Assembly (NCBI GenBank): GCA_900316395.1
Contig: ONCT01000001.1
Location: 30,087 to 94,086 of the forward strand
Direction: 5' to 3'
DNA: 64,000 nucleotides
From: an uncultured Lachnospiraceae bacterium
Lineage (GTDB): Bacteria; Bacillota; Clostridia; Lachnospirales; Lachnospiraceae
Shown here in pieces: positions 29,478 to 62,061 of this stretch. Made by a program: the position numbers and the translations under genes. The first letter of the stretch is position 1, and the number at the start of each line of letters is the position of its first letter. Below the pieces are notes generated by a model that saw nothing but the letters and a program-made list of their open reading frames with translations, was not told the origin of the DNA and did not search any database.

Positions 29478-30482
29478 ATGGCAAAGGAGAGGACACAGTT
29501 TTGTATAGAATGCAGAAAAGAAACTGGATATAAGATCAGAAGAGAACAGTGTACACATTGCATTAAAGGACAGGAATATACCTTTAATGTATTAAAAGCT
29601 GTATGTGAAGAATGTGGTGAGGAAGTTAACTTACCAGGGTTAATGGATAGCAATGCTAAATTAATTGATGAACAGTACAGAAATATAGAAAATCTTGTAT
29701 CCGTTGAGGATATTTATACATTAATGGAGATTTATAACATAGGAAAAGCTCCGTTATCATTGGCATTAGGATTTGGTGAAATCACAATTACTAGATATCT
29801 TCAGGGACAGTATCCATCAGTTGAATACTCTAGGATTATTCGAAAGGCATTATCTGATGCTGATTTTATGATGGATTGTCTCGAGGAGAATAAAGCAAAA
29901 GTGGGAGATACTGCATTCAGAAAGTCATGGAGTGCAGCAATGAAATTGAAGGAACTTGTGGATTCTGTATCTGAGAAGATGCTTATTACAATTTCATATA
30001 TCTTTGAAAAGACAGGAGAAATAACTCCACTTGCTTTACAGAAGATTCTTTACTATATACAGGGGATTTTTATGGTTAATTATGACAGACCGCTATTCAG
30101 TGAGGAATGTAAGGCTTGGGTGCATGGTCCTGTGTATGAAGACGTGTACGATATGTTCAAAGGATTTAAGTATAATCCAATTGAAGACAAAAGATTTGTG
30201 ATTTTCAAAGATAGATTTCAGATGCTCACAGATGAGGAGAAGGAAGTAATAGATATGGTTCTTAACTCATTTGGAATGTATAGTGGTAAAACATTGGAAA
30301 GAATTACTCATAAAGAATCACCTTGGGCTGATGTTTATGATGGTGATAATGTTTGTGGATATACAAATGAACCTATTACAAAAGGGGCTATCAAAGAATA
30401 CTTTAAGTCGATATCGCAGGATTTTGATCTCAAATCTGAGGAGGGATTAAAGAAGTATATTCAGAGTCAATTAGCTTGTTAA
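29478..30482 (+). CDS. antitoxin-type protein: MqsA-like zinc ribbon + HTH fused to DUF4065 (Panacea/SocA) domain
   Basis: CIECRKE...CTHC...CEECG zinc ribbon. HTH IGKAPLSLALGFGEITITRYLQGQ. DUF4065-like LQKILYYIQGIFMVNYDRPLFSEECKAWVHGPVYEDVY. Confidence 0.65.
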   Translation: MAKERTQFCIECRKETGYKIRREQCTHCIKGQEYTFNVLKAVCEECGEEVNLPGLMDSNAKLIDEQYRNIENLVSVEDIYTLMEIYNIGKAPLSLALGFGEITITRYLQGQYPSVEYSRIIRKALSDADFMMDCLEENKAKVGDTAFRKSWSAAMKLKELVDSVSEKMLITISYIFEKTGEITPLALQKILYYIQGIFMVNYDRPLFSEECKAWVHGPVYEDVYDMFKGFKYNPIEDKRFVIFKDRFQMLTDEEKEVIDMVLNSFGMYSGKTLERITHKESPWADVYDGDNVCGYTNEPITKGAIKEYFKSISQDFDLKSEEGLKKYIQSQLAC

Positions 30483-30528
30483 AACAGAAGTGGTATCAAA
30501 ATGTACACATTTTGGAACGCTCAGATAA

Positions 30529-30560
30529 GGTTGACAGGAGGACGGGGATTTGCGTTCAAC
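30529..30560 (+). repeat. GTTGACA-palindrome family copy (degenerate 3' arm)
   Basis: GGTTGACAGGAGGACGGGGATTTGCGTTCAAC. Confidence 0.6.
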
Positions 30561-30620
30561 TTTATTTTGAAAGGTGATTTATACATGAAAAAAATGCGGA
30601 TATCCGCAAAAATATCGCGA

Positions 30621-30650
30621 GGTTGACAAGGACCCGGTCCTTTTGTCACA
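30621..30650 (+). repeat. GTTGACA-palindrome family copy (most complete hairpin form)
   Basis: GGTTGACAAGGACCCGGTCCTTTTGTCACA, with inner stem AAGGAC/GTCCTT. Confidence 0.75.
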
Positions 30651-30673
30651 ATTGAGTAGGGAGGGAATCGATC

Positions 30674-31180
30674 ATGAGCAAAATAGAATTAGTTCGTGGA
30701 AGCGTTGTGGAAATGGAAGTTGACGCCATAGTCAATGCCGCTAATAGTAGTTTGCTAGGAGGCGGCGGAGTAGATGGTGCAATTCACCGTGCTGCAGGAC
30801 CAAAGCTTTTAGAAGAGTGCAGAACATTAAATGGATGTGACACTGGTGATGCTAAGATTACGAAGGCATACAACATCAAGAACGCAAAGTACATAATACA
30901 TACAGTAGGTCCTGTCTATAGTGGTTCTAAAGAGGATGCCATTCTTCTAGCCTCATGCTACACGAAGAGCTTGGACTTGGCATTAGAGAATGGATGTAGC
31001 AGCATTGCATTTCCAGGAATATCAACAGGAGTGTACGGATATCCCATAGATGAGGCTGCCAAGGTCTCTTTAGATGCCATCAATAAATGGATAGACAATC
31101 ACCCAGCCGCTGATATAAATGTGTATTTATGTTGCTTTAGACATAGAGAAATGGCAGCATACGAAGATATACTGCGTTAA
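30674..31180 (+). CDS. macro-domain protein (O-acetyl-ADP-ribose deacetylase / ADP-ribose-binding, YmdB-like)
   Basis: [24 protein letters not shown] and [13 protein letters not shown] motifs. Confidence 0.85.
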
Positions 31181-31219: not shown

Positions 31220-32494
31220 ATGAAAAATTTGAAAAGATTAATTTCTTTGCTGCTTGTAGTAACATTTTGTATAACAGGAGTCTGTGGATGTGGCAATGCA
31301 AACAACCCGAATAACACGACACAAAGCATTGTAAAGAATAATCTTTCTAAAGACGGTTATAAACTAGAGCAGGTGGTAGTTCTTAGCCGTCACAACATTC
31401 GCTCACCCTTATCAGAGAAGGGCTCTGTATTAGATACTATGACGCCTCATAACTGGATTCCATGGTCCTCTAAAGCAAGCGAAATATCTCTTCGAGGAGG
31501 CATCTTAGAAACCGAGATGGGACAGTATTTTAGAAAATGGTTAGAGAAGGAAGGACTGTTCCCTGAGAACTATATGCCACGTGACGGGGAAGTTAGAATC
31601 TATGCCAATTCGAAGCAGCGCACAATTTCGACTGCCAATTATTTCAAGACAGGTCTTCTTCCTGTAAGTAATCAGCCAGTGGAGTATCATATGGAATTTG
31701 ATGCTATGGATCCTGTTTTTAATCCACGTCTTACCAATATTAATGATCAGTTTAAAGAAGAGGCTCTGCAGCAGATGACAGAGATTTATAATTCGCGTAT
31801 GGCAGAAATCTCAGACAATTATAAGCTTCTTGAAGAAGTTATTGATGTAGAAGAATCGGAGGATTATAAGTCTGGCAAATTCACAGAATTTAAACCAGGT
31901 GATGATACATTTTCACTAGAGGAAATGAACGAGCCGGCGTTGAAGGGCTCTCTAAAAACAGCATGTTCTTTAAGCGACGCATTAGTGCTCCAATATTACG
32001 AGGCTAATCCCCAGAACGTGGCTTTCGGCAAGCATCTAAGCATGAAGCAGTGGAAAGATATTGCCGAGATTAAGGATGCATATCAGGATGTATTATTTTC
32101 AGCACCTAAGATTGCAACTAATATAGCCAGCCCACTTCTTAAGGAGATTAAGGCTGAGCTTGATAACAATACTCGTAGCTTTTCTTTTCTATGTGGACAT
32201 GACTCTAATATATCAAGCGTGATGTCTGCCCTATCAATAGAGGATTATAATCTGCCAAATGCTATTGAGAAGACACCTATCGGATGTAAATTGGTATTTT
32301 GTAAGTGGGTAGATTCTTCTGGCAAAGAATACATTAGCGTTGATATGGTAAATCAGACCATTGATCAGCTTAAGGGGATGAATCTTCTTGACGAAAGTAA
32401 TCCGCCATGTATAGTGGAGCTTAAGTTTAATGGTCTTGAGCCTAATCCTAATGGTCTATACACACTTGAAGATGTAATGAAACGATTTAATTGA
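31220..32494 (+). CDS. histidine acid phosphatase family lipoprotein (Agp/AppA-like)
   Basis: Lipobox TGVCGCGN. RHNIRSP (RHGxRxP) catalytic motif. CGHDSN (HD motif). Confidence 0.8.
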   Translation: MKNLKRLISLLLVVTFCITGVCGCGNANNPNNTTQSIVKNNLSKDGYKLEQVVVLSRHNIRSPLSEKGSVLDTMTPHNWIPWSSKASEISLRGGILETEMGQYFRKWLEKEGLFPENYMPRDGEVRIYANSKQRTISTANYFKTGLLPVSNQPVEYHMEFDAMDPVFNPRLTNINDQFKEEALQQMTEIYNSRMAEISDNYKLLEEVIDVEESEDYKSGKFTEFKPGDDTFSLEEMNEPALKGSLKTACSLSDALVLQYYEANPQNVAFGKHLSMKQWKDIAEIKDAYQDVLFSAPKIATNIASPLLKEIKAELDNNTRSFSFLCGHDSNISSVMSALSIEDYNLPNAIEKTPIGCKLVFCKWVDSSGKEYISVDMVNQTIDQLKGMNLLDESNPPCIVELKFNGLEPNPNGLYTLEDVMKRFN

Positions 32495-32531
32495 CAGGTG
32501 CTCAGAAGATTTTAGGTGATAAAAAAAAGAT

Positions 32532-32559
32532 TTCAAAAAAATGTCGCATTTTGTATAAT
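32532..32559 (+). promoter_or_regulatory. possible promoter of the Nif11-leader peptide gene
   Basis: TTCAAA, 16 nt spacer, TATAAT. Confidence 0.4.
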
Positions 32560-32605
32560 TTATGTGTATATATAAGTGAAAAGAAAATTGGCAGGGGGAT
32601 TAGCA

Positions 32606-32633
32606 AAGTTGCAGTCCTTTTGTTGATAATATT
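32606..32633 (+). repeat. degenerate GTTGACA-palindrome family copy in the 5' UTR of the Nif11-leader peptide gene
   Basis: AAGTTGCAGTCCTTTTGTTGATAATATT. Compare GGTTGACAGGGGTCCTTTTGTCAAATATT (reverse complement of 43019-43047). Confidence 0.4.
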
Positions 32634-32654
32634 AATAAGAAGGGGGTAATTATT

Positions 32655-32951
32655 ATGAGAAATGATTTATTAAAGGGATTAACAGATGAGCAGATTAAGA
32701 AGGTAGAAGCTTGCAAGAGTCCAGACGAAATCTTAGCACTTGCTAAGGCAGAAGGTGTTGAACTTTCTGAAGAGCAACTAGAAGCAGTAAGTGGTGGTTG
32801 TGGAACAGATAAAAACAAAAATAAGATGCATTGCTACTGTTGTGGTTCCTACGATATGAAGTATTATGCCAGAGAAGGAGATAAGAAAGCATATTGGGAA
32901 TGCCAAAAGTGTGGAGCAGATTTCCCTATGTCAAACTCAATCGTAGATTAA
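32655..32951 (+). CDS. Nif11-like-leader peptide precursor (putative RiPP/bacteriocin precursor) with Cys-rich core
   Basis: Leader KSPDEILALAKAEGVELSEEQLEAVSGG ends in a double-Gly. The 50-aa core has 7 Cys, including CYCC and CQKC. Confidence 0.7.
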   Translation: MRNDLLKGLTDEQIKKVEACKSPDEILALAKAEGVELSEEQLEAVSGGCGTDKNKNKMHCYCCGSYDMKYYAREGDKKAYWECQKCGADFPMSNSIVD

Positions 32952-35709: not shown

Positions 35710-37359
35710 ATGTGTTCAATTATGGGATATTGTGGCACGAAGATGTCTTATGAAGACTTCAAGCGCTCATTATCTAAGACAAAAACCAGAGGACCTGACG
35801 TAAGCAGGATTATTAAGACTAACAGAGGATATCTTGGATTCAATAGATTATCCATCATGGGACTTAATAATAATGGAATGCAGCCTTTTGTATTTAAGGA
35901 TAGTTCCACACTAATCTATGATGTGACTTCAGATGCGCCTTGCTACGGAGAGCCAACTGATTATGACTATGCCCTTGTATGCAACGGTGAGATATATGGC
36001 TTTCGTGATTTGAAGGAGACATTAATTGGACAGGGTTATTCCTTCATAAGCGATTCGGATTGCGAAATCCTTCCTGCCATGTATAAGGAATGCGGAGTCG
36101 ATATGTTCAAGATGCTGGATGCAGAATTCGCCCTTGTCTTATATGACAATAAGACTGATTCATATATAGCAGCAAGAGACCCTATTGGAATTAGACCTTT
36201 GTATTATGGTGTTGACGAGGACGGAAGCTACATTTTCGCATCGGAGCCTAAGAACCTGGTAAATGTTGTTAAGAACATCAAACCATTTCCACCAGGTCAT
36301 TACTTTAAGGATGGAGAATTTGTATGCTACAGAGACTTATCAGAAGTTGAAGTATACAACAATGATAGTAAAGAAGTTATATTAGGTAACATACATGACC
36401 TGCTAATCGAAGGTGTAGATAAGCGACTTGATTCTGACTCACCAGTTGGGTTCCTTCTATCAGGAGGACTTGATTCTTCCCTTGTGTGTGGCATCGCTGC
36501 ACAGCTTATGCCAAGACCTCTTGAGACATGGGCAATAGGAATGGATATAGATGCTATTGATCTAAAATACGCAAGAGAGGTTGCAGACTTCATTGGCTCT
36601 AATCATCACGAGATAATCATTACGAAGAAGGATGTGCAGGATGCGCTAGAGCCTGTTATCGAAGCACTTGGTACTTATGACATAACAACTATTAGAGCAT
36701 CAATTGGAATGTATCTTCTGTGCAAGGCAATTCATGAGCAGTCAGATAACAAGGTTATCCTAACAGGTGAGATATCAGATGAAATCTTTGGATATAAATA
36801 CACCGACTTTGCTCCATCGCCAGAAGAATTCCAGAAGGAATCTCAGAAGCGTATACGAGAGATACATATGTATGACGTGCTGCGAGCAGACAGATGTATA
36901 AGTGTTAATTCACTTGAGGCCAGAGTTCCATTTGGTGACCATGATTTTGTGGAGTATTGCATGTCCATTAATCCGGACACCAAAATGAATCATTATGGCA
37001 AAGGTAAATACTTACTTAGAAAAGCATTCGAGAAGGACAAGATAATACCAGATGATATATTGTGGCGAGAGAAGGCAGCATTTTCAGATGCTGTAGGACA
37101 CTCACTTAAGGATGATTTGGTTGAACTTGCAGAAGCAACCTACTCTGATAAGGAGTACGAGGACAAGATTAAGAAATACAAGCATGCAACACCATTTACC
37201 AAGGAGTCGTTACTATATCGTGAGATATTCGAGAAGTATTATCCTGATGAGTCAGAGATGGTAATAGACTTCTGGATGCCTAACAAGAGCTGGGACGGCT
37301 GCAATGTAAATGACCCATCAGCCAGAGTTCTATCCAACTACGGCGCCAGCGGAGTTTGA
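35710..37359 (+). CDS. asnB: asparagine synthase (glutamine-hydrolysing)
   Basis: N-terminal MC... Ntn amidotransferase. PP-loop LLSGGLDSSLV. 549 aa. Confidence 0.9.
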   Translation: MCSIMGYCGTKMSYEDFKRSLSKTKTRGPDVSRIIKTNRGYLGFNRLSIMGLNNNGMQPFVFKDSSTLIYDVTSDAPCYGEPTDYDYALVCNGEIYGFRDLKETLIGQGYSFISDSDCEILPAMYKECGVDMFKMLDAEFALVLYDNKTDSYIAARDPIGIRPLYYGVDEDGSYIFASEPKNLVNVVKNIKPFPPGHYFKDGEFVCYRDLSEVEVYNNDSKEVILGNIHDLLIEGVDKRLDSDSPVGFLLSGGLDSSLVCGIAAQLMPRPLETWAIGMDIDAIDLKYAREVADFIGSNHHEIIITKKDVQDALEPVIEALGTYDITTIRASIGMYLLCKAIHEQSDNKVILTGEISDEIFGYKYTDFAPSPEEFQKESQKRIREIHMYDVLRADRCISVNSLEARVPFGDHDFVEYCMSINPDTKMNHYGKGKYLLRKAFEKDKIIPDDILWREKAAFSDAVGHSLKDDLVELAEATYSDKEYEDKIKKYKHATPFTKESLLYREIFEKYYPDESEMVIDFWMPNKSWDGCNVNDPSARVLSNYGASGV

Positions 37360-37383
37360 CACGGGGACGTACCTTTTGTCAAC
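37354..37383 (+). repeat. GTTGACA-palindrome family copy containing the asnB stop codon
   Basis: GTTTGACACGGGGACGTACCTTTTGTCAAC. TGA at 37357-37359. Confidence 0.75.
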
Positions 37384-37388
37384 TTTGT

Positions 37389-37409
37389 GTTGACAAAGTC
37401 TTTGTCAAC
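37389..37409 (+). repeat. GTTGACA-palindrome family, compact unit
   Basis: GTTGACAAAG-T-CTTTGTCAAC. Confidence 0.75.
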
Positions 37410-37414
37410 CATGT

Positions 37415-37423
37415 GTTGACAAC
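37415..37423 (+). repeat. GTTGACA-palindrome family, half unit
   Basis: GTTGACAAC. It can pair with the preceding TTGTCAAC. Confidence 0.5.
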
Positions 37424-37465
37424 CAAAAAAAGAAAAGAGAAAAGATTACTAAAAGGAGGCACATT

Positions 37466-41514: not shown

Positions 41515-42903
41515 ATGACATCTGAGATTATAGAAGACAAGCTTCATGAAGAGTGTGGCGTCTTCGGAATCTATGAACAGGAAGGAATAGATGTAAATAA
41601 GGATATCTATTACGGGCTAATTGCCTTGCAGCATCGTGGCCAGGAATCGGCGGGGATATCAGTGTCCGATACTACTGGTCCTATGGGAAATGTTATTACC
41701 AAGAAGGGAATGGGACTTGTTAGCGAGGTCATTAACAAGGATGCTCTTAATACACTTAAGGGCAACATAGGTGTAGGACATGTTCGTTATTCAACCAGCG
41801 GTGGCAGCACTCCCGAGAACGCTCAGCCTATTGCTATGAATTACATCAAGGGAAGTCTCGCACTTGTTCACAATGGCAATATTGTAAATGCGTCTGAGCT
41901 TAAGGAAGAACAGATGTATAGAGGGCAGGCTCATTATACGACTTCAGATTCTGAGATACTTGCTTATGAAATTATTAGTGAGCGTGTGAAGGTAACAACA
42001 ATAGAAGAAGCAGTGAAGAATGCAGCTACCAGATTGAAGGGTGGATTCGCATGTGTTATTATGAGTCCTCGTAAGCTACTTGCCATAAGAGACCCGCTAG
42101 GAATCAAGCCATTAGTTCTTGGCAAAAGGGACAATGCATATATGTTCGCATCAGAAAGTGCAGCAATAACTGCTGTAGGGGGAGAACTTATTAGAGATGT
42201 TAAGCCAGGAGAAATAATAAGTGTAACCAAGGACGGAATTGTATCAGATGAATCCCTTTGTTCTAAGCCACATGCACACTGCATATTTGAATACATATAT
42301 TTTGCAAGAGATGATTCCATAATAGATGGAATTGAAGTAAGAGAGTCAAGAAGGAAAGCAGGCACAGCGCTAGCGAGACTTGACAAAGTGGATGCAGACA
42401 TTGTATGTGGCGTGCCAGATTCTGGTCTTGCTGCAGCAGAAGGCTATTCAGAGGAATCTAAGATACCTTTTGCAATAGCATTTTATAAGAATAGTTATAT
42501 TGGAAGAAGCTTCATTAAGCCTACGAAGGAAGAGCGTAACGCTGCTGTTCATATGAAGCTAACTGTTCTTAAGTCAGTAGTTGAAGGCAAGAGTATTGTT
42601 CTTATTGATGATTCAATTGTTCGTGGAACAACTATGAAGCAGATAATTGAAATGTTAAGAAATGCCGGCGCTAAAGAGGTACATGTAAGAATAAGCTCAC
42701 CTCCATTTCTATATCCCTGCTACTACGGGACAGATGTCCCATCTTCGGGACAGCTCATTGCATCAGAGCATTCAACAGAGGAGATAAGGCAGAGTATAGG
42801 AGCAGACTCACTGGCATATCTTAGGTTGGAAGATTTCCACATCATGGTAGGCAACCTATCATTATGCAGCGCATGCTTCAACAACAATTACCCAGTAGGT
42901 TGA
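41515..42903 (+). CDS. purF: amidophosphoribosyltransferase
   Basis: Propeptide then CGVFGI Ntn nucleophile. PRPP loop VLIDDSIVRGTT. C-terminal Cys cluster. ATG at 41515 after AAGGAGG. Confidence 0.85.
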   Translation: MTSEIIEDKLHEECGVFGIYEQEGIDVNKDIYYGLIALQHRGQESAGISVSDTTGPMGNVITKKGMGLVSEVINKDALNTLKGNIGVGHVRYSTSGGSTPENAQPIAMNYIKGSLALVHNGNIVNASELKEEQMYRGQAHYTTSDSEILAYEIISERVKVTTIEEAVKNAATRLKGGFACVIMSPRKLLAIRDPLGIKPLVLGKRDNAYMFASESAAITAVGGELIRDVKPGEIISVTKDGIVSDESLCSKPHAHCIFEYIYFARDDSIIDGIEVRESRRKAGTALARLDKVDADIVCGVPDSGLAAAEGYSEESKIPFAIAFYKNSYIGRSFIKPTKEERNAAVHMKLTVLKSVVEGKSIVLIDDSIVRGTTMKQIIEMLRNAGAKEVHVRISSPPFLYPCYYGTDVPSSGQLIASEHSTEEIRQSIGADSLAYLRLEDFHIMVGNLSLCSACFNNNYPVG

Positions 42904-42923
42904 CACGGGGACTTTTTGTCAAC
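42898..42923 (+). repeat. GTTGACA-palindrome family copy containing the purF stop codon
   Basis: GGTTGACACGGGGACTTTTTGTCAAC. TGA at 42901-42903. Confidence 0.8.
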
Positions 42924-42939
42924 AATTGAAACAAATAGA

Positions 42940-43008
42940 ACACCTAAGCACCAAATACCTGCACGCTCATAAAGAAAATCGCGTCGCAGGTTTTGGCTGC
43001 TTAGGTGT
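42940..43008 (-). repeat. conserved-loop hairpin, copy A (core on the minus strand)
   Basis: Minus strand reads ACACCTAAGCAGCCAAAACCTGC-[GACGCGATTTTCTTTATGAGCGT]-GCAGGTATTTGGTGCTTAGGTGT. Confidence 0.8.
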
Positions 43009-43021
43009 ATTCCAGTAAATA

Positions 43022-43046
43022 TTTGACAAAAGGACCCCTGTCAACC
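43022..43046 (-). repeat. GTTGACA-palindrome family copy, inverted relative to 42898-42923
   Basis: Reverse complement reads GGTTGACAGGGGTCCTTTTGTCAAA. Confidence 0.8.
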
Positions 43047-43072
43047 TAGGCATAGATATAAAGGAGAATAAT

Positions 43073-45643
43073 ATGGCAGCATTTGACAGAGTAAAAAGTG
43101 GCATAGATGATTTTGACAAGGCTATAGATAATATTAGATTAGGGGATAATGTGGTATGGCGTGTCAGCAAACTATCACAGTTTAAACTTTTTATGGAGCC
43201 CTATGTTAAGCAGGCCATAGAGGACAAGCGCAACATTATATATTTTCGATTCGCGTCCCACGAACCACTAGTAGAAGACTGTGAAGATATTAAGACAATC
43301 AATGTTCCCCTCACACATAGGTTTGAAGATTTTACAGTGGCTATCCATAATTATATAGAGAAGGAAGGTTACGATGCTTTTTACGTATTTGACTGTCTCT
43401 CTGAGTTGCAGACAGCCTGGGCTACTGATCTTATGATGGGTAACTTTTTTAGGGTGACCTGTCCTTTCTTATTTATACTAGATACAGTTGCATTCTTCCC
43501 GATAATAAGAGGAAAGCATTCTGTTAGCGCAATCAACAAAATCTTAGATACAACCCAGCTTTTCTTCGATGTATTTGAGGATAAGAATAACATTTATGTA
43601 AGACCTGAGAAGGTGTGGAACAGAGAATCTGACACAATGCTTTTGCCTCATATATATGAGCCAGAGTCGGGAAGCTTTCGCCCTATCTTAGACGGTGTTA
43701 AGTCCAGCAGATTTTATCAGACCTTAGGAAGAGAGAAGCAATCTTCAATGGAGCATTACTCTGATTCCTGGGACAGATTCTTCAACAAGGCCAGACTGAA
43801 GGAAGAAAGTGGAATTGATATTGAAGATGATTTATCGAAAATGTGTGACATCATGATGACAAGAGATGAAAAGATGCGCAGGATGGTGAAGCAGCATTTT
43901 ACAGCTGATGATTATTTCGATGTAAGAAATCACATGGTCGGAACAGGAATGATTGGTGGAAAAGCATGTGGTATGCTTCTTGCCCGGGCAATTATTCGTA
44001 ACAGGCAGGAGGATATTGATGAAGTATTAGAGCCCCATGATTCCTTCTATATTGGTTCAGATATGTATTATACATATATAGTTGACAATGGATTGTGGGA
44101 TACGCGAATCAAGCAACGAACTGACGAAGGATATTTTAAGGTAGCAGATGAGTTTTCTAATAAGCTTATGAACGGAATCTTCTCTCCTACTATGGAGGAA
44201 CAGTTTGTAAGGATCATAGAATATTATGGACAGGATCCTTATATTATTCGATCCAGCAGTATATTAGAAGATGGTTTCGGTAATGCCTTTGCTGGCAAAT
44301 ACGAATCAGTATTCTGTACCAATAGAGGGACACCTCAGGAGAAGCTTGAAGAGTTCGAGCATGCCATCAAGGTTGTATATGCAAGCTCTATGAGTCTCTC
44401 AGCCCTTGACTATAGAAAAAGAAGAGGGTTAGACAAAAGGGATGAGCAGATGGCACTTCTTGTGCAAAGAGTATCAGGTTCCCATTATGGCTCATATTAT
44501 ATGCCATGCGCAGCAGGTGTTGGATATTCCTACAGCCCATACAGAATAATGAAGGATTCTGACCCGAAGGCAGGAATGCTTCGACTTGTTATGGGACTAG
44601 GAACATCAGCAGTTGACAGAACAGAAGGCTCTTATCCTAGGATAGTTAATCTTGATATGCCTAAGAAGACCTCTTATTCTTCGTCGGCAGACAAGCATAA
44701 ATTCTCTCAGGGCAAGTCAGAGGTTATTGATATGAACGAGCGTTGCCTGAAGAAATTAACTCTTGAAGACATTGAATCGGATTTGCCAGATTATTTGAAG
44801 AGAATATTATTAGAGCATGACTATGATGCAGAACTGCGTCTTCGTGAGATTGGAAGAAATCGAGAGGTGGAGTTCATATCCTGTGCAGGCCTTGTAGACA
44901 ACGATAAGCTAATGGAACAGATGAAGAGGATGCTAAGATGTATATCTGATGAGTATGATTATCCTATCGATACAGAATTTACCATTAATATATCAGATAA
45001 TGAAGAATATTCTATTGACCTCTTACAATGCAGACCTTTACAGGTTCAGAAGGCTTCAAAAGGAAGTGCAATGCCTCAGGATGTGGATGAATCCAACATC
45101 TTCTTTGAGACTGTAGGCGCATCCATGGGAATGTCCAAGGTATCGAAGCTCGATATTATTGTGTTCGTGGACCCAGTGAATTATTATAATATGCCATACA
45201 AGGAGAAGGATTTTGTGGCCAAGCTTGTAGGTAAGATTAATTGGCATTATCGTGATACTGATAAGAATATGATGTTAATTGTTCCAGGTCGTGTGGGAAC
45301 CTCCTCCCCAGAATTAGGAGTGCCAACAACATTTGCAGATATAAGTGCATATAGCATTATATGCGAGGTTGAAGAATCCAAAGCAGGCTACAATCCAGAG
45401 CTTTCCTATGGAAGCCACATTTTCCAGGACTTGGTAGAAGCTAATATACTATATACGGCAATGTTCAATAATGATAAGACACTTCACTACAATCCTGACA
45501 AGCTTGCAGCATCACATGATATTATAGACCAGTTCGAAGCAAGGGAATCGCTGCGAGATATTGTCCATGTATATGATGTATCCTCAAGAGACTTTCGTAT
45601 CTATAACGACGTCCCTAACGAACATTTATTAATAACATGTTGA
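43073..45643 (+). CDS. PEP/pyruvate-binding (PPDK_N ATP-grasp) domain protein with degenerate KaiC/RecA-like N-terminal domain
   Basis: Central MIGGKACGMLLA...IIRSSSILEDGFGNAFAGKYES is typical of PPDK_N. The N-terminal 200 aa has the KaiC-like layout but VVWRVSKLSQ sits where the P-loop would be. Confidence 0.6.
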   Translation: MAAFDRVKSGIDDFDKAIDNIRLGDNVVWRVSKLSQFKLFMEPYVKQAIEDKRNIIYFRFASHEPLVEDCEDIKTINVPLTHRFEDFTVAIHNYIEKEGYDAFYVFDCLSELQTAWATDLMMGNFFRVTCPFLFILDTVAFFPIIRGKHSVSAINKILDTTQLFFDVFEDKNNIYVRPEKVWNRESDTMLLPHIYEPESGSFRPILDGVKSSRFYQTLGREKQSSMEHYSDSWDRFFNKARLKEESGIDIEDDLSKMCDIMMTRDEKMRRMVKQHFTADDYFDVRNHMVGTGMIGGKACGMLLARAIIRNRQEDIDEVLEPHDSFYIGSDMYYTYIVDNGLWDTRIKQRTDEGYFKVADEFSNKLMNGIFSPTMEEQFVRIIEYYGQDPYIIRSSSILEDGFGNAFAGKYESVFCTNRGTPQEKLEEFEHAIKVVYASSMSLSALDYRKRRGLDKRDEQMALLVQRVSGSHYGSYYMPCAAGVGYSYSPYRIMKDSDPKAGMLRLVMGLGTSAVDRTEGSYPRIVNLDMPKKTSYSSSADKHKFSQGKSEVIDMNERCLKKLTLEDIESDLPDYLKRILLEHDYDAELRLREIGRNREVEFISCAGLVDNDKLMEQMKRMLRCISDEYDYPIDTEFTINISDNEEYSIDLLQCRPLQVQKASKGSAMPQDVDESNIFFETVGASMGMSKVSKLDIIVFVDPVNYYNMPYKEKDFVAKLVGKINWHYRDTDKNMMLIVPGRVGTSSPELGVPTTFADISAYSIICEVEESKAGYNPELSYGSHIFQDLVEANILYTAMFNNDKTLHYNPDKLAASHDIIDQFEARESLRDIVHVYDVSSRDFRIYNDVPNEHLLITC

Positions 45644-45756
45644 GACCCTGAAAAAAGCTGTCATCTTTAATTCTTTTGCGCTTAAAATGGCATTATCTTT
45701 ACTTTTTGCGCACCGCATGATAAAATAAGTAAAGATTTATAGGAGGGTGACCTATT

Positions 45757-46677
45757 ATGATTTCGTATGAGGGACTTGAGAAGGCGCTGAAGGAAAAAGG
45801 AATTGGAAAGACAGAACTGTCTACAGAGTTAGGATTGTCCACACGAACAGTTGCCAAGATAGCAAAAGGAGAAAAACTGTCTAAGCGTAGTATACATAGA
45901 ATCGCTGAGTATCTTGGTGAATCAACAGATGTTATAATGAAGGAAATTTCCGATAACAGAATCCTACAAATACTTCGCGAAGAAAAGGATATGAAACTAT
46001 CTGGTGGTCTCTATCATGAACTTCAAGTCAGGATGACATACAATTCCAATCATATTGAGGGAAGTAGACTTTCAGAGGAGCAGACACGGTTGATATTTGA
46101 GACGAATACTCTTGATGTGGGTGATGGGATACAGGTGGATGATGTGTTAGAGACCGTACATCATTTCAGGGCGATTGATTATGTGATAGATGTTGCAGAA
46201 GATGAACTTACAGAGGACATTATCAAGTACTTTCATTATATATTGAAGCATGACACTAAGGACTCCACTCTCGAATGGTTTGCAGTCGGTGATTACAAGA
46301 AGAGAGCAAACGTTGTTGGTGGAAGGAAGACCACTAGCCCGTCAGAAGTTAGTAACCACATGAAGTCTTTGTTACACGAGTACAATTCCATGGAAAATGT
46401 TGATATAGAAGATATAATAGCATTTCATGCTGATTTCGAATATATTCATCCATTTCAGGATGGTAACGGAAGAGTAGGAAGGCTTATTGCACTTAAAGAA
46501 TGTCTTCATCATGACATAATACCGTTTATAATAGAGGATTCTAAAAAGAATTATTACTACAGAGGGCTTTCTGAATGGCGAAATGAAAAGGGCTATCTTA
46601 TAGACACATGTCTTGATGGGCAGGATACATTTGTAAAGATCCTTGATATGTTAGAGCTTGCAAGTGACTTTGCTTAA
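45757..46677 (+). CDS. HTH (XRE-like) + Fic domain protein (putative AMPylase), class II with SxxxEG inhibitory motif
   Basis: Fic motif HPFQDGNGRVGR. Upstream SNHIEG matches the (S/T)xxxE(G/N) alpha-inh. N-terminal ELSTELGLSTRTVAKIAKGE HTH. Confidence 0.85.
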   Translation: MISYEGLEKALKEKGIGKTELSTELGLSTRTVAKIAKGEKLSKRSIHRIAEYLGESTDVIMKEISDNRILQILREEKDMKLSGGLYHELQVRMTYNSNHIEGSRLSEEQTRLIFETNTLDVGDGIQVDDVLETVHHFRAIDYVIDVAEDELTEDIIKYFHYILKHDTKDSTLEWFAVGDYKKRANVVGGRKTTSPSEVSNHMKSLLHEYNSMENVDIEDIIAFHADFEYIHPFQDGNGRVGRLIALKECLHHDIIPFIIEDSKKNYYYRGLSEWRNEKGYLIDTCLDGQDTFVKILDMLELASDFA

Positions 46678-46689
46678 TGTACTAGACAA

Positions 46690-46757
46690 AGAAAATATGA
46701 GCTGACATGCGCCAAGCGATTTTCTCCATGAGCGTGCGTATGTCAGTCATATTTTCT
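46690..46757 (+). repeat. conserved-loop hairpin, copy B
   Basis: AGAAAATATGAGCTGACATGCGC-[CAAGCGATTTTCTCCATGAGCGT]-GCGTATGTCAGTCATATTTTCT, with one bulge and one G-U pair. Confidence 0.8.
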
Positions 46758-46775
46758 AAGAATAACACTAAACAC

Positions 46776-46804
46776 TTGACATATGCATAATATGGTAGTA
46801 GAAT
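46776..46804 (+). promoter_or_regulatory. sigma-A-type promoter of the gltB operon
   Basis: TTGACA, 17 nt spacer, TAGAAT. Confidence 0.65.
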
Positions 46805-46836
46805 AATAACGATTTTAAGAAGAAATAGTGATTTAT

Positions 46837-46852
46837 GAAGCAAAGGCGCTTC
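46837..46852 (+). promoter_or_regulatory. hexaloop hairpin (candidate ANTAR-bound antiterminator) in the gltB leader
   Basis: GAAGC-AAAGGC-GCUUC. Same loop as the asnB leader with fully compensated stem changes. It overlaps the terminator 5' arm. Confidence 0.55.
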
Positions 46853-46882
46853 GAGTTTACGCTCGAAGTGCCTATTTTTTTG
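46845..46882 (+). terminator. leader (attenuator) terminator upstream of gltB
   Basis: GGCGCTTCGAG-tttacg-CTCGAAGTGCC followed by TA-T7, about 25 nt before the gltB start. Confidence 0.8.
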
Positions 46883-52965: not shown

Positions 52966-55794
<2,829 letters not shown>

Positions 55795-55795
<1 letters not shown>

Positions 55796-56871
55796 TGATA
55801 GCTAATAGGAAATTAATATTAGAAGATGGTTCGTGCTATGAAGGCATAGGATTTGGAAGTAATGATGAGAAAGTATTAGAGATTGTATTCAATACATCAA
55901 TGGCAGGATATCAGGAAATATTATCAGACCCGTCCTATACAGATCAGGCAATTGTAATGTCATATCCTTTAATTGGTAATTATGGTATAGCAGAAGAGGA
56001 TTTCGAGAGTAAAATGATTGGTGCAAGTGCACTAATTGTAAGAGACATTAATGATAATCCTTCTAACTTTCGCTCCACTAAGTCAGTTCCAGAGTTACTA
56101 GAAGAAGCAGGCGTGCCGGGTATATACGGAGTTGACACGAGACAACTAGTAAGAAGTATTAGAGACCATGGTTCCAGAAGATGCATAATAACAGATGCTA
56201 GTACTTCTAGCGAATTAGGGGTGTCCCGAATTAAGGACACCCCAATAAGTCATGATGCAGTAAGAAGAGTTAGCTGTAAGAAGAAATATTATTCCCGCAC
56301 ATCTAATCCTAGATACAATGTGGTTGCAATTGACTGTGGCATGAAGACTAACATTGTAAGAATGCTTAATGATAATAGATGCAATGTAACAGTTGTGCCA
56401 TACAATACAACTAGCGATGAGATACTTGCCCTTCATCCTGATGGATTGTTTATATCTAATGGACCAGGAGATCCAACTGATGTTCCAGAAGTAATTGATA
56501 CACTAAGAGGTCTTCATGGCAGGGTTCCAATGTTTGGAATATGTCTTGGCCACCAGCTTATTGCGCTGTCTTACGGAGCTAAGACATATAAGCTTAAGTT
56601 CGGACATAGAGGCGGCAACCATCCAGTTCGCGACGTAAGAACAGGCAAGATTGAGATTACCAGTCAGAATCACAGCTACGCAGTTGACGCAGATTCTATT
56701 CCACAAGATGAACTTAAGATATCTCATATCAATCTATTAGATAATACTGTTGAAGGGTTGTATAGCAATAAGAATAAGGTCTTCTCAGTTCAGTATCATC
56801 CAGAAAGCGCACCGGGTCCATGTGACAGCATGTACCTATTCAATAGATTTACTGAGCTAATGAAGAATTAA
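55795..56871 (+). CDS. carA: carbamoyl-phosphate synthase small (glutaminase) subunit
   Basis: 358 aa. GICLGHQL catalytic Cys. YHPES motif. Confidence 0.95.
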
Positions 56872-56874
56872 TAG

Positions 56875-56931
56875 TATGAGATAATATCTGCCAAGCGATT
56901 TTCTTCATGAGCGTGCAGATATTATCTCATA
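56875..56931 (+). repeat. conserved-loop hairpin, copy C
   Basis: Perfect 17-bp stem TATGAGATAATATCTGC / GCAGATATTATCTCATA around CAAGCGATTTTCTTCATGAGCGT. Confidence 0.85.
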
Positions 56932-56952
56932 GGATAACAGTACATTATAGCC

Positions 56953-57017
56953 AGGTTAAGATATAATACCTACTAAGCGATTTTCTGTATGAGCGCGTAG
57001 GTATTATATCTTAACCT
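56953..57017 (+). repeat. conserved-loop hairpin, copy D
   Basis: Perfect 21-bp stem AGGTTAAGATATAATACCTAC / GTAGGTATTATATCTTAACCT around TAAGCGATTTTCTGTATGAGCGC. Confidence 0.85.
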
Positions 57018-57045
57018 TACAAGATACTACATCAGGAGATTAATT

Positions 57046-61488: not shown

Positions 61489-62061
61489 ATGCATAGACAA
61501 TCAGATATACGCTACTCCATTCTGATAGTGTCTTCCTCTGAGAGATTTGTACATTTGGTTAAGAAGTCTTTAGATGGCTTTATCACTATTGATGTAAGAA
61601 AGAGTGGGTCCCTTGCAAGGCGAAGTCTTGTTGAGAGAGATTACGATATAATTGTAATTAACGCGCCTCTTCCTGATGAGTCAGGAATTGAATTAGTAAG
61701 AGATGCATCAGACAGAAGTCGTGCTCTTATATTATTTGTTACACCAGTAGAGCTATATGATGACGTTCTTGAAAATGTTACAGATAGAGGCGTCCTTGCA
61801 ATAACCAGTGAAATGGTTGAGAACAGACTTGATAAGGCCATTCGATACCTTACTGCGCTGCAAGGGCGAATACATCGTTTAGAGCAGAAGACTCTTACAC
61901 TTGAGGAGAAGATGACAGAGATTCGACTTGTCAACAAAGCCAAAGCCATACTTATTAATAAGAAGGGCTTAAGTGAAGCTGAGGCGCACAAAGCCATTGG
62001 CAAGCTGGCTATGGACAATGGAGTATCAAGAGGAGAAATCGCCAAGCGAATAATAGGTTGA
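61489..62061 (+). CDS. ANTAR-domain RNA-binding antiterminator with pseudo-receiver domain (NitR/AmiR-like)
   Basis: C-terminal ANTAR IRLVNKAKAILINKKGLSEAEAHKAIGKLAMDNGVSRGEIAKRII. The receiver-like N-terminus has IVINAPLPDESG, i.e. Asn where the phospho-acceptor Asp is expected. Confidence 0.85.
   Translation: MHRQSDIRYSILIVSSSERFVHLVKKSLDGFITIDVRKSGSLARRSLVERDYDIIVINAPLPDESGIELVRDASDRSRALILFVTPVELYDDVLENVTDRGVLAITSEMVENRLDKAIRYLTALQGRIHRLEQKTLTLEEKMTEIRLVNKAKAILINKKGLSEAEAHKAIGKLAMDNGVSRGEIAKRIIG

Follow-up and report, generated by a model that had tools for sequence, protein, structure and literature searches.

The 149-bp non-coding block between purF and a PPDK_N gene in a 64,000-nucleotide stretch of DNA from an uncultured Lachnospiraceae bacterium (assembly GCA_900316395.1, contig ONCT01000001.1, positions 30,087 to 94,086; the whole stretch is hereafter called the window) is an insertion, which entered the purF/PPDK_N junction after the split from the sister species RUG145. 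We consider it probable that the block is formed by nested non-autonomous mobile palindromes, in which a pair of outer repeats, designated P, encloses a hairpin with a conserved loop. A sequence-only reading of the window had described here two inverted terminal sequences bracketing a 23-bp-stem hairpin, had proposed that this composite links the two repeat families of the window and had likened it to a miniature inverted-repeat transposable element (MITE). All of these features are present where they had been placed, and the block does join two families, P being the outer and the loop-conserved hairpin the inner one. The likeness to MITEs held for the terminal inverted repeats, the lack of coding capacity and the presence or absence between relatives; it failed for target duplication, for ends of the DDE type and for a single conserved unit.

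The insertion between purF and the PPDK_N gene

Positions 42898-43046 form a long imperfect palindrome, in which two inverted P palindromes of ~29 nt surround the 23-bp-stem hairpin (Table 1). The outer repeat GGTTGACACGGGGACTTTTTGTCAAC occupies 42898-42923 and its inverted relative 43022-43046, the two being 25-26 nt long; taken from 42896-42916 and 43028-43048, the terminal inverted repeat is 21 nt long and 86% complementary. The hairpin, copy D, has arms of 23 nt each (42940-42962 and 42986-43008, 87% complementary) and a 23-nt loop (42963-42985); in this loop the core AMGCGATTTTCTNNATGAGCG is found on the minus strand, at 42964-42984, with a single mismatch (ACGCG for AAGCG). Exact copies of the core start on the plus strand at 46714, 56893 and 56975, giving four matches in all compared with a chance expectation of 0.01, and the loop is thus, but for that mismatch, the reverse complement of the core elsewhere, as had been claimed. 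An unfiltered search of the full window with a covariance model of the hairpin (R1) retrieved four copies only, at 63-75 bits, everything else scoring ≤19 bits. Since the model search yields just these four, D is the only window copy with its core antisense to the genes, in agreement with the sequence-only reading. The 166-nt region folded at -74 kcal/mol, compared with -34 ± 4 in shuffled sequences (z = -11).

No convincing promoter-like or terminator-like site was found inside the composite when 42700-43200 was examined, and the features of an intrinsic terminator (G+C stem, 3-8-nt loop, T run) were not seen in that region, where the loops are 14-23 nt; transcription therefore probably still runs from purF through the block into the PPDK_N gene. 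At the gathering thresholds of Rfam 15 the window had no match, and searches of the window and of P-rich loci in E-value mode returned only chance matches of the hairpin/miRNA type. Two independent Logan assemblies of the same strain (L260 and L261; L numbers are our locus labels) have contigs that start at window position 42979, inside the D loop, which indicates that the palindrome halts assemblers.

The genome closest to the window in the species collection is RUG145 (L056), a sister species that served as the sole outgroup for the window sites and is 11-21% diverged; its gltD product is 97% identical at the amino-acid level, and at the DNA level the two are collinear between purF and glnA, with 79-89% identity. 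Searches of RUG145 for core copies with up to 3 mismatches found none, and all four hairpins and both purF-PPDK_N copies of P are absent from it. The distance from purF to the PPDK_N gene is 9 nt in RUG145 vs 169 nt in the window, and removing exactly 42898-43046 leaves ...TAC CCA GTA|TAG, a purF end (...YPV*) in register with that of RUG145 (...YPI*). Because this exact deletion restores a RUG145-like end, the element must have entered directly 5' of the old purF stop, with exact boundaries and without target duplication. The P pair is thus a clean natural case of an insertion that leaves no target duplication and rewrites the end of a housekeeping gene. This bears out the DNA-level or mobile origin that the sequence-only reading had put forward as one of two options; its proposed comparison of orthologous spacers gave precise absence in RUG145 but no target-site duplication.

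The remaining hairpins of the window are absent just as precisely from RUG145. Hairpin A (arms ~46690-46712 and 46738-46760) went in just after the last codon of a helix-turn-helix (HTH)-Fic gene, ahead of its stop codon, and removing 46669-46756 restores a Fic end of ...SD* followed by TAAGAATAA, where RUG145 has ...HD* followed by TAAGGATAA. Hairpins B (56875-56891 and 56915-56931) and C (56953-56973 and 56997-57017) fill the junction of carA and carB, and removing 56869-57040 restores a 2-nt junction, as in RUG145; in relatives the spacer is mostly ~7-16 nt. The B-C block provides carA with its stop codon and carB with its ribosome-binding site. These palindromes therefore split tight gene junctions (purF/PPDK_N, carA/carB), give new stops and ribosome-binding sites and break metagenome assemblies. 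Copying of the stems out of local flanking sequence was also considered and was unsupported at three window sites.

A second strain of the window species (L230) has a composite 100% identical to that of the window, with identities of ~97% over purF-PPDK_N and 95% over the gltB flank. The HTH-Fic gene (window 45640-46658) is missing in this strain and present in RUG145; the PPDK_N gene of L230 joins the Fic 3' end directly (...ATAACGTG|CAAGTGAC), which points to a strain-level deletion.

Table 1. Repeat features of the window, with scores from covariance models of the inner hairpin (R1) and of the outer repeat P (R2)
Feature	Position	Strand	Evidence or remark
P copy 24 nt upstream of the macro-domain gene	30619..30651	+	R2 35.3 bits; degenerate P at ~30528-30560
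Weak P match	32584-32628		R2 model
P copy whose TTGACA gives the asnB TGA stop	37352..37384	+	R2 39.3 bits
Left P copy, TIRYT-type terminal repeat	42896..42924	+	R2 32.4 bits, E = 2e-6
Whole inserted composite, 149 bp	42898..43046		Ends form a perfect 8-bp terminal inverted repeat, GGTTGACA / TGTCAACC
Current purF stop TGA, provided by the inserted P	42901..42903	+	End of the open reading frame; adds one residue, ...YPVG*
A/T-rich spacer from left P to inner hairpin, 16 nt	42924..42939		50% identity to the L048 composite
Inner hairpin, copy D, loop-conserved family	42940..43008	-	R1 75.1 bits, minus strand
A/T-rich spacer from hairpin to right P, 13 nt	43009..43021		Sequence and comparison with L048
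Right P copy, 27 nt upstream of the PPDK_N start codon	43021..43048	-	R2 31.5 bits
Hairpin unit A, 21-nt leader and hairpin	46669..46756	+	R1 62.9 bits; core 46714-46734
Tandem hairpin units B and C filling the carA-carB junction	56869..57040	+	R1 74.2 and 73.9 bits

The outer repeat and Y1 transposases

P is an imperfect palindrome with the consensus GGTTGACA-GGGGACGGTCC-TTTTGTCAAC, and the R2 model finds five to six copies in the window. A pattern scan located P at ≥120 loci across Bacillota and Actinomycetota, the hosts among the matches listed being Lachnospiraceae, Oscillospiraceae, Syntrophomonadaceae, Gelria and Sarcina as well as Olsenella and Propionibacteriaceae. The centre, ACA-N-GGGGACGGTCC-TTTTGT, is fixed, and the closing stem covaries (GAAC/GTTC, GTTG/CAAC, GGAG/CTCC, CGTG/CACG). 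Among the matches listed there were also 23 '+-' pairs of P with 30-120 nt between the copies, perfect doublets included.

P flanks genes of the Y1_Tnp family (PF01797, IS200-like; E = 1e-11 to 2e-15) in inverted orientation (L271, L331, L272, L273), and 20 of 80 Y1 homologues have P 45-110 nt upstream (+) and/or 0-60 nt downstream (-). The P-flanked Y1 proteins are 250-265 aa long, with the Y1 domain at about residues 14-124; their C-terminal ...R(Q/K)I(A/E)(R/E)L(T/L)G(I/V)NRGVV resembles an HTH, and a search of these proteins against Pfam gave no HTH match. Repeats of the TIRYT class share the motif GGGGWSAS (Di Nocera et al., 2013, PMC3733652); P has the corresponding consensus GGGGACGG, and the window copies GGGGACTT and GGGGTCCT, so that 6-7 of the 8 positions agree. 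The class is equivalent to subclass 2.1 of TnpA-Y1, whose members have an HTH at the C-terminus (Quentin et al., 2018, PMC6006769), and our assignment of the P-linked Y1 proteins to subclass 2.1 rests on the description given there.

Judged by its sequence and by the published account, P is the terminal repeat, of the repetitive extragenic palindromic (REP)-like sort, of a family of IS200-like Y1 HUH transposases of the TIRYT/TIRtron kind. In common with TIRtrons, P flanks Y1_Tnp genes in inverted orientation, has a GGGG-led motif and is likewise found apart from the gene, singly, in inverted dimers and in clusters. It differs in reading GGGGACGG or GGGGTCCT rather than the published GGGGWSAS, and perhaps in its hosts, which are Bacillota and Actinomycetota; Di Nocera et al. 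(2013, PMC3733652) place their tagged GTAG and CGTC REP families in other phyla. The window differs further from these systems in that its 64 kb hold no Y1 gene and in that the P pair carries another element at its centre. The outer repeats are thus a further member of an already known kind, and they appear to extend the little-studied TIRYT/TIRtron repeats to Bacillota and Actinomycetota of the gut and rumen.

P-related palindromes also occur at 37386-37425, upstream of glnA-III, as two short TTGTCAAC-N5-GTTGACAA units that could be an operator. Elsewhere, a gene for a small Cys-rich peptide with a Nif11-like leader (...LEAVSGG) lies at window 32480-32951 and at positions 1-580 of L048, a locus of another rumen genome described below; the leader suggests the precursor of a ribosomally synthesized and post-translationally modified peptide (RiPP). 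In the window and in L048 alike, P-like elements and a conserved promoter-like stretch precede this gene, the proximal P being oppositely oriented.

The loop-conserved hairpin family

The inner hairpin belongs to a family that is a variant of bacterial palindromic repeats in which the loop is conserved and the stem is free but Watson-Crick paired. When 185,579 species genomes were scanned for the exact core, 55 loci were obtained; nine of these (in Variovorax, Eikenella and others) are stemless and were therefore counted as chance matches. Stems are present in all of the other 54 copies, which belong to six genomes of uncultured Lachnospiraceae from the rumen (32, 14, 3, 3, 1 and 1 copies); relaxed searches of 0.44 Mb added just 15 further copies, half of them with one or two mismatches. 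A metagenome scan for the core returned mostly chance matches among the matches listed. Each copy is a hairpin of 65-75 nt with a 17-26-bp stem and a conserved 21-25-nt loop, YAAGCGATTTTCTNNATGAGCGYR. Between copies the loop is 96% identical, a value to which the exact-pattern scan itself contributes, and the arms are 33-39% identical. Every copy is intergenic, and the flanking genes are functionally unrelated (queA, thrS, flgK, trpD/A, argB/D, glycosyltransferases); between co-directional genes 30 copies are sense and 19 antisense, a weak bias. A subfamily with compensated variants of the loop bases (AGCC...GGC for AAGC...GCG) has the closing CCGACA/GTCGGG (L001 1002, L013 6686, L023 5938, L040 5542).

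Pairing in the stems is strongly maintained, with 24 of 26 modelled base pairs changed on both sides and 367 compensatory cells compared with 132 ± 10 in shuffled data. Among 1320 Watson-Crick pairs the stem mismatches comprised 17 G.T, 12 A.C and ~24 others, with no strand-specific wobble or G-U excess; both strands thus pair equally well, which indicates DNA rather than one RNA strand. The family inverts the usual rule of bacterial palindromic repeats, the loop being kept and the stem left free, and this implies that the folded single strand is recognised by its tip. Our searches of the literature by sequence and by keywords found no account of a loop-conserved family; the inner hairpins are apparently undescribed and are the more interesting part of the composite. 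A phage origin was also considered and rejected, the core pattern giving chance matches only in viral contigs. The same holds for spacer-like or guide-like stems: three arms had no exact match in viral contigs, and no second-site arm matches were found in ~3 Mb.

The inner hairpins behave as a structure-specified mobile element, in that they are present or absent between relatives, leave no target duplication, form tandem arrays and insert in or next to other hairpins. A unit of 107 nt (19 nt, hairpin, 19 nt) sits between the terminator stem and the T tract in L042 and is absent from L247, which is 90-94% identical, with a duplication of ≤1 nt; L023 has two tandem copies where L246 has one. 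Red_deer_1_mag_187 has whole units embedded in the apical loop of another unit, with as many as three levels of nesting, and the loop of the host unit is interrupted after ...AAGCGA. Units also sit at the tip of a G+C-rich terminator stem (L044, L007) and inside locus-specific outer palindromes: over all copies, the two flanks of a unit pair with one another more than permuted flanks do, with 13 of 71 below the 5th percentile (p = 0.001). Identical arms at two loci of one genome (L031-594, L047) indicate that the arms were copied together with the loop, and a general hypermutation of stems was rejected because orthologous hairpins in five other pairs of strains or species keep their arms or show single compensated changes. 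Such pairs of empty and filled sites, together with the nested copies, make the insertion mechanism of the family directly testable. Nested arrays occur at L001 2760-3080, L010 2720-3060 and L034 5380-5560, some with an extra G+C hairpin, GCACACCCCATTCGGGGTGCGC.

Both layers of the composite resemble REP sequences and REPINs (REP doublets forming hairpins) in being short non-coding palindromes outside genes, found mainly downstream of them, which combine into inverted doublets and larger hairpins and vary between close relatives. The accepted model for REP sequences is mobilisation in trans by a single-copy HUH Y1 enzyme, the REP-associated tyrosine transposase (RAYT). P and the inner hairpin differ in lacking a GTAG or CGTC tag; in REP sequences the stem is conserved and the loop short (2-5 nt), whereas in the inner family this is reversed, and no RAYT was found beside the inner hairpins. 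In MITEs of Gram-positive bacteria, such as RUP of Streptococcus pneumoniae, insertion duplicates the target (TA in the case of RUP), and the ends are those of a DDE insertion sequence. The composite shares with them a size of ~100-150 bp, terminal inverted repeats, an intergenic position at gene ends and foldability as RNA, but it shows no duplication and has the ends of a Y1 system. Integron attC sites and ssoA origins are hairpins of single-stranded DNA recognised by their structure, in which the stem is mostly free and short motifs and unpaired bases are fixed; the conserved CS-6 motif of the ssoA loop (TAGCGT/A) may be faintly like the loop TAAGCGA of the inner hairpin. Unlike these, the inner hairpins lack an integron or cassette setting as well as R'/R'' core sites, and dozens of copies, in either orientation, are scattered over chromosomes between housekeeping genes.

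Whether the inner hairpins amount to a new class of structure-specified mobile DNA is a more tentative matter, and we regard this as a possibility that the evidence does not yet favour. In such a class the loop would be constrained in sequence, presumably as the recognition or cleavage site of a single-strand nuclease or recombinase, and the stem would be a free 'cassette'; units would home to hairpin tips (their own loops, terminators and TIRYT pairs) and to sites just 5' of stops, and arms would be exchangeable at a fixed locus, as between two strains at the Fic-gltB site.

Origin of the composite and its gene context

The arrangement of P (+), spacer, hairpin, spacer and P (-) recurs at an unrelated locus in Sheep_2_mag_58 (L048), in the same orientation to the genes, so that the search for further composites suggested by the sequence-only reading did yield a second one. 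Compared with window copy D, its inner hairpin is 96-100% identical, its P copies (the termini) 60-69% and its spacers 50-62%. Pairs of P also enclose unrelated DNA (L048 89-224, L068 10021-10157), and this hairpin subfamily is also represented by copies free of P (L031, L038, L198, L249). The composite is best read as two nested elements, with the hairpin unit at the apex of a P doublet, a position in keeping with the tendency of the inner family to nest in palindromes. The P pair and hairpin may have come in one step, or the P ends may have moved as a REPIN-like unit to which the hairpin was added in a second step.

By analogy with the biochemistry of IS200/IS605 and RAYT enzymes, P pairs were presumably moved in trans by a Y1 enzyme, as folded single-stranded DNA and with no target duplication. 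The inner family would depend on a single-strand nuclease that recognises the hairpin and its loop, most likely of the HUH type. The inserted P provides purF with its new stop (TGA), and the purF-PPDK_N mRNA would contain a very stable intercistronic hairpin; as REP elements do, this could serve as an RNase III site or 3' stabiliser.

Several observations weigh against nested mobile palindromes. A 4-nt direct repeat, TAGG, is found at both junctions of the composite and is formally possible as a target duplication; counting it as one would imply an ancestral purF-PPDK_N fusion, and a duplication of TA or TAGG was ruled out on reading-frame grounds. A lone outgroup cannot separate one event from two (P pair first, hairpin later), and the exact-pattern scan, as said, imposes part of the loop conservation. 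At the site of hairpin A, L230 shares flanks and loop with the window but has other arms, which a simple copy-and-paste does not explain: between window 46689-46760 and L230 ~800-900 the arms differ at ~11 of 26 positions per arm, all compensated, with a bulged G on the 5' arm in both, and other orthologous hairpins are unlike these. The copies of P near the RiPP-precursor gene hold the same position in two distant genomes, which would suit a functional site that was kept better than a recent insertion. A cognate transposase, which the sequence-only reading had thought worth seeking, was found for the terminal repeats as the Y1 family in other genomes, whereas the 64-kb window has no Y1 or other transposase gene. 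No transposase gene lies within 4 kb of any hairpin copy, phmmer searches with the Y1 proteins found none nearby, and an all-against-all comparison of open reading frames near the hairpins revealed no recurring protein family. With no transposase in the window or near the hairpins, the mobilisation of either layer in this genome is therefore something that we infer. Finally, the insertion points are not preceded by a conserved sequence (GTA, GAC, AAT, GCGA, GGCT), unlike those of IS200/IS605. A fixed target of the IS200/IS605 type was accordingly ruled out, since the 5' junctions differ (CCAGTA, AGTGAC, GAAGAAT, AAGCGA, AGGGCT).

The block stands in a nitrogen-assimilation cluster at 35.7-61.5 kb of the window, in which all genes are on the plus strand and follow the order asnB, glnA-III, amtB-glnK, purF, PPDK_N, HTH-Fic, gltB, gltD, aminotransferase, pyrG, carA, carB and glnA-I, and then an ANTAR protein. 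It might therefore be a cis-regulatory RNA of this operon, with a loop-bound protein that would control the processing, stability or translational coupling of glutamine-using enzymes; this would take in the hairpins in the purF-PPDK_N mRNA, before gltB and between carA and carB. All four window hairpins do lie in one 14-kb stretch of the cluster (purF, gltBD, pyrG, carAB, glnA), three of the four have the sense orientation, the structure combines high stability with strong covariation, and the block is probably transcribed, since neither terminator nor promoter is present. We nevertheless consider this explanation unlikely, as RUG145 has the same gene cluster without any hairpin copy and copies in other genomes adjoin unrelated genes, for which reason the hypothesis of a regulon was rejected. 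The occurrence of both orientations (30:19), the equal avoidance of G-U pairs on both strands, unlike in selected RNA helices, and the lack of an Rfam match point the same way, and nesting of units in each other's loops would break the supposed protein site. The sequence-only reading had also allowed for an independent minus-strand RNA, a small RNA encoded by the block whose loop would pair or compete with the plus-strand copies. The core of D does run antisense to the genes, the loops of A, B and C are complementary to it, and a weak promoter-like match (9/12) lies on the minus strand at 43095-43068. This match is at chance level (4 weak matches vs 1.1 ± 1.0 expected) and no terminator follows it, ACGCG-type copies elsewhere are also mostly antisense and lack a conserved promoter, and the mismatch types show no strand preference. 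These results leave the proposal unsupported, and we give it very little credence.

Two further explanations concern the outer layer. P could represent operators of a DNA-binding regulator that flank intergenic control regions for looping, in which case the composite would be a regulatory cassette. P is an imperfect palindrome with TTGACA/TGTCAA half-sites, its copies lie just upstream of ribosome-binding sites or at gene ends (window 30619, 37352 and 43021; L048 193; L068 10125), and two genomes preserve the order P-promoter-P before the RiPP-precursor gene, with a protein identity of only 48%. Even so, the centre of P (GGGGACGGTCC-TTTT) is conserved as well as the half-sites and the closing stem covaries, as in a hairpin rather than an operator; P is spread over many phyla, forms arrays and abutting inverted doublets, flanks Y1 transposase genes in the manner of REPtrons and TIRtrons and is lacking from the purF-PPDK_N junction of RUG145, and an operator role is improbable in view of all this. 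The whole composite could alternatively be one classical MITE, moved by a DDE transposase through its terminal inverted repeats, to which its small size, lack of coding capacity, precise presence or absence and second copy lend some appeal. Against this stand the lack of a target-site duplication in the model consistent with the reading frame, the match of the ends to repeats around Y1 HUH rather than DDE genes, and the pattern of divergence, in which the two composites differ in termini and spacers and hardly in the hairpin. P pairs around unrelated DNA and hairpins free of P argue in the same direction, and only one other composite was found (L048), not many near-identical copies; we hold a classical MITE to be highly unlikely. 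Nested mobile palindromes therefore remain our preferred explanation.

A few features of the surrounding genes may be recorded. Upstream of gltB, a near-consensus promoter (TTGACA-17-TAGAAT; region 46776-46880) is followed by a leader with a strong terminator hairpin (46844-46873) and T run, and the ANTAR-domain protein is encoded at 61489-62061, after glnA-I; to judge from these sequences, this combination looks like NitR-type antitermination of glutamate synthase. In L258, which is otherwise 99.9% identical, pyrG lacks ~40 nt relative to window 54346-54384 and is split into products of 56 aa and 451 aa, either as a strain variant or through an assembly error. Finally, a SocA/Panacea antitoxin-domain gene (29478-30482) is followed by the macro-domain gene (30674-31180), with copies of P between them, and the two genes may form a toxin-antitoxin or defence pair.

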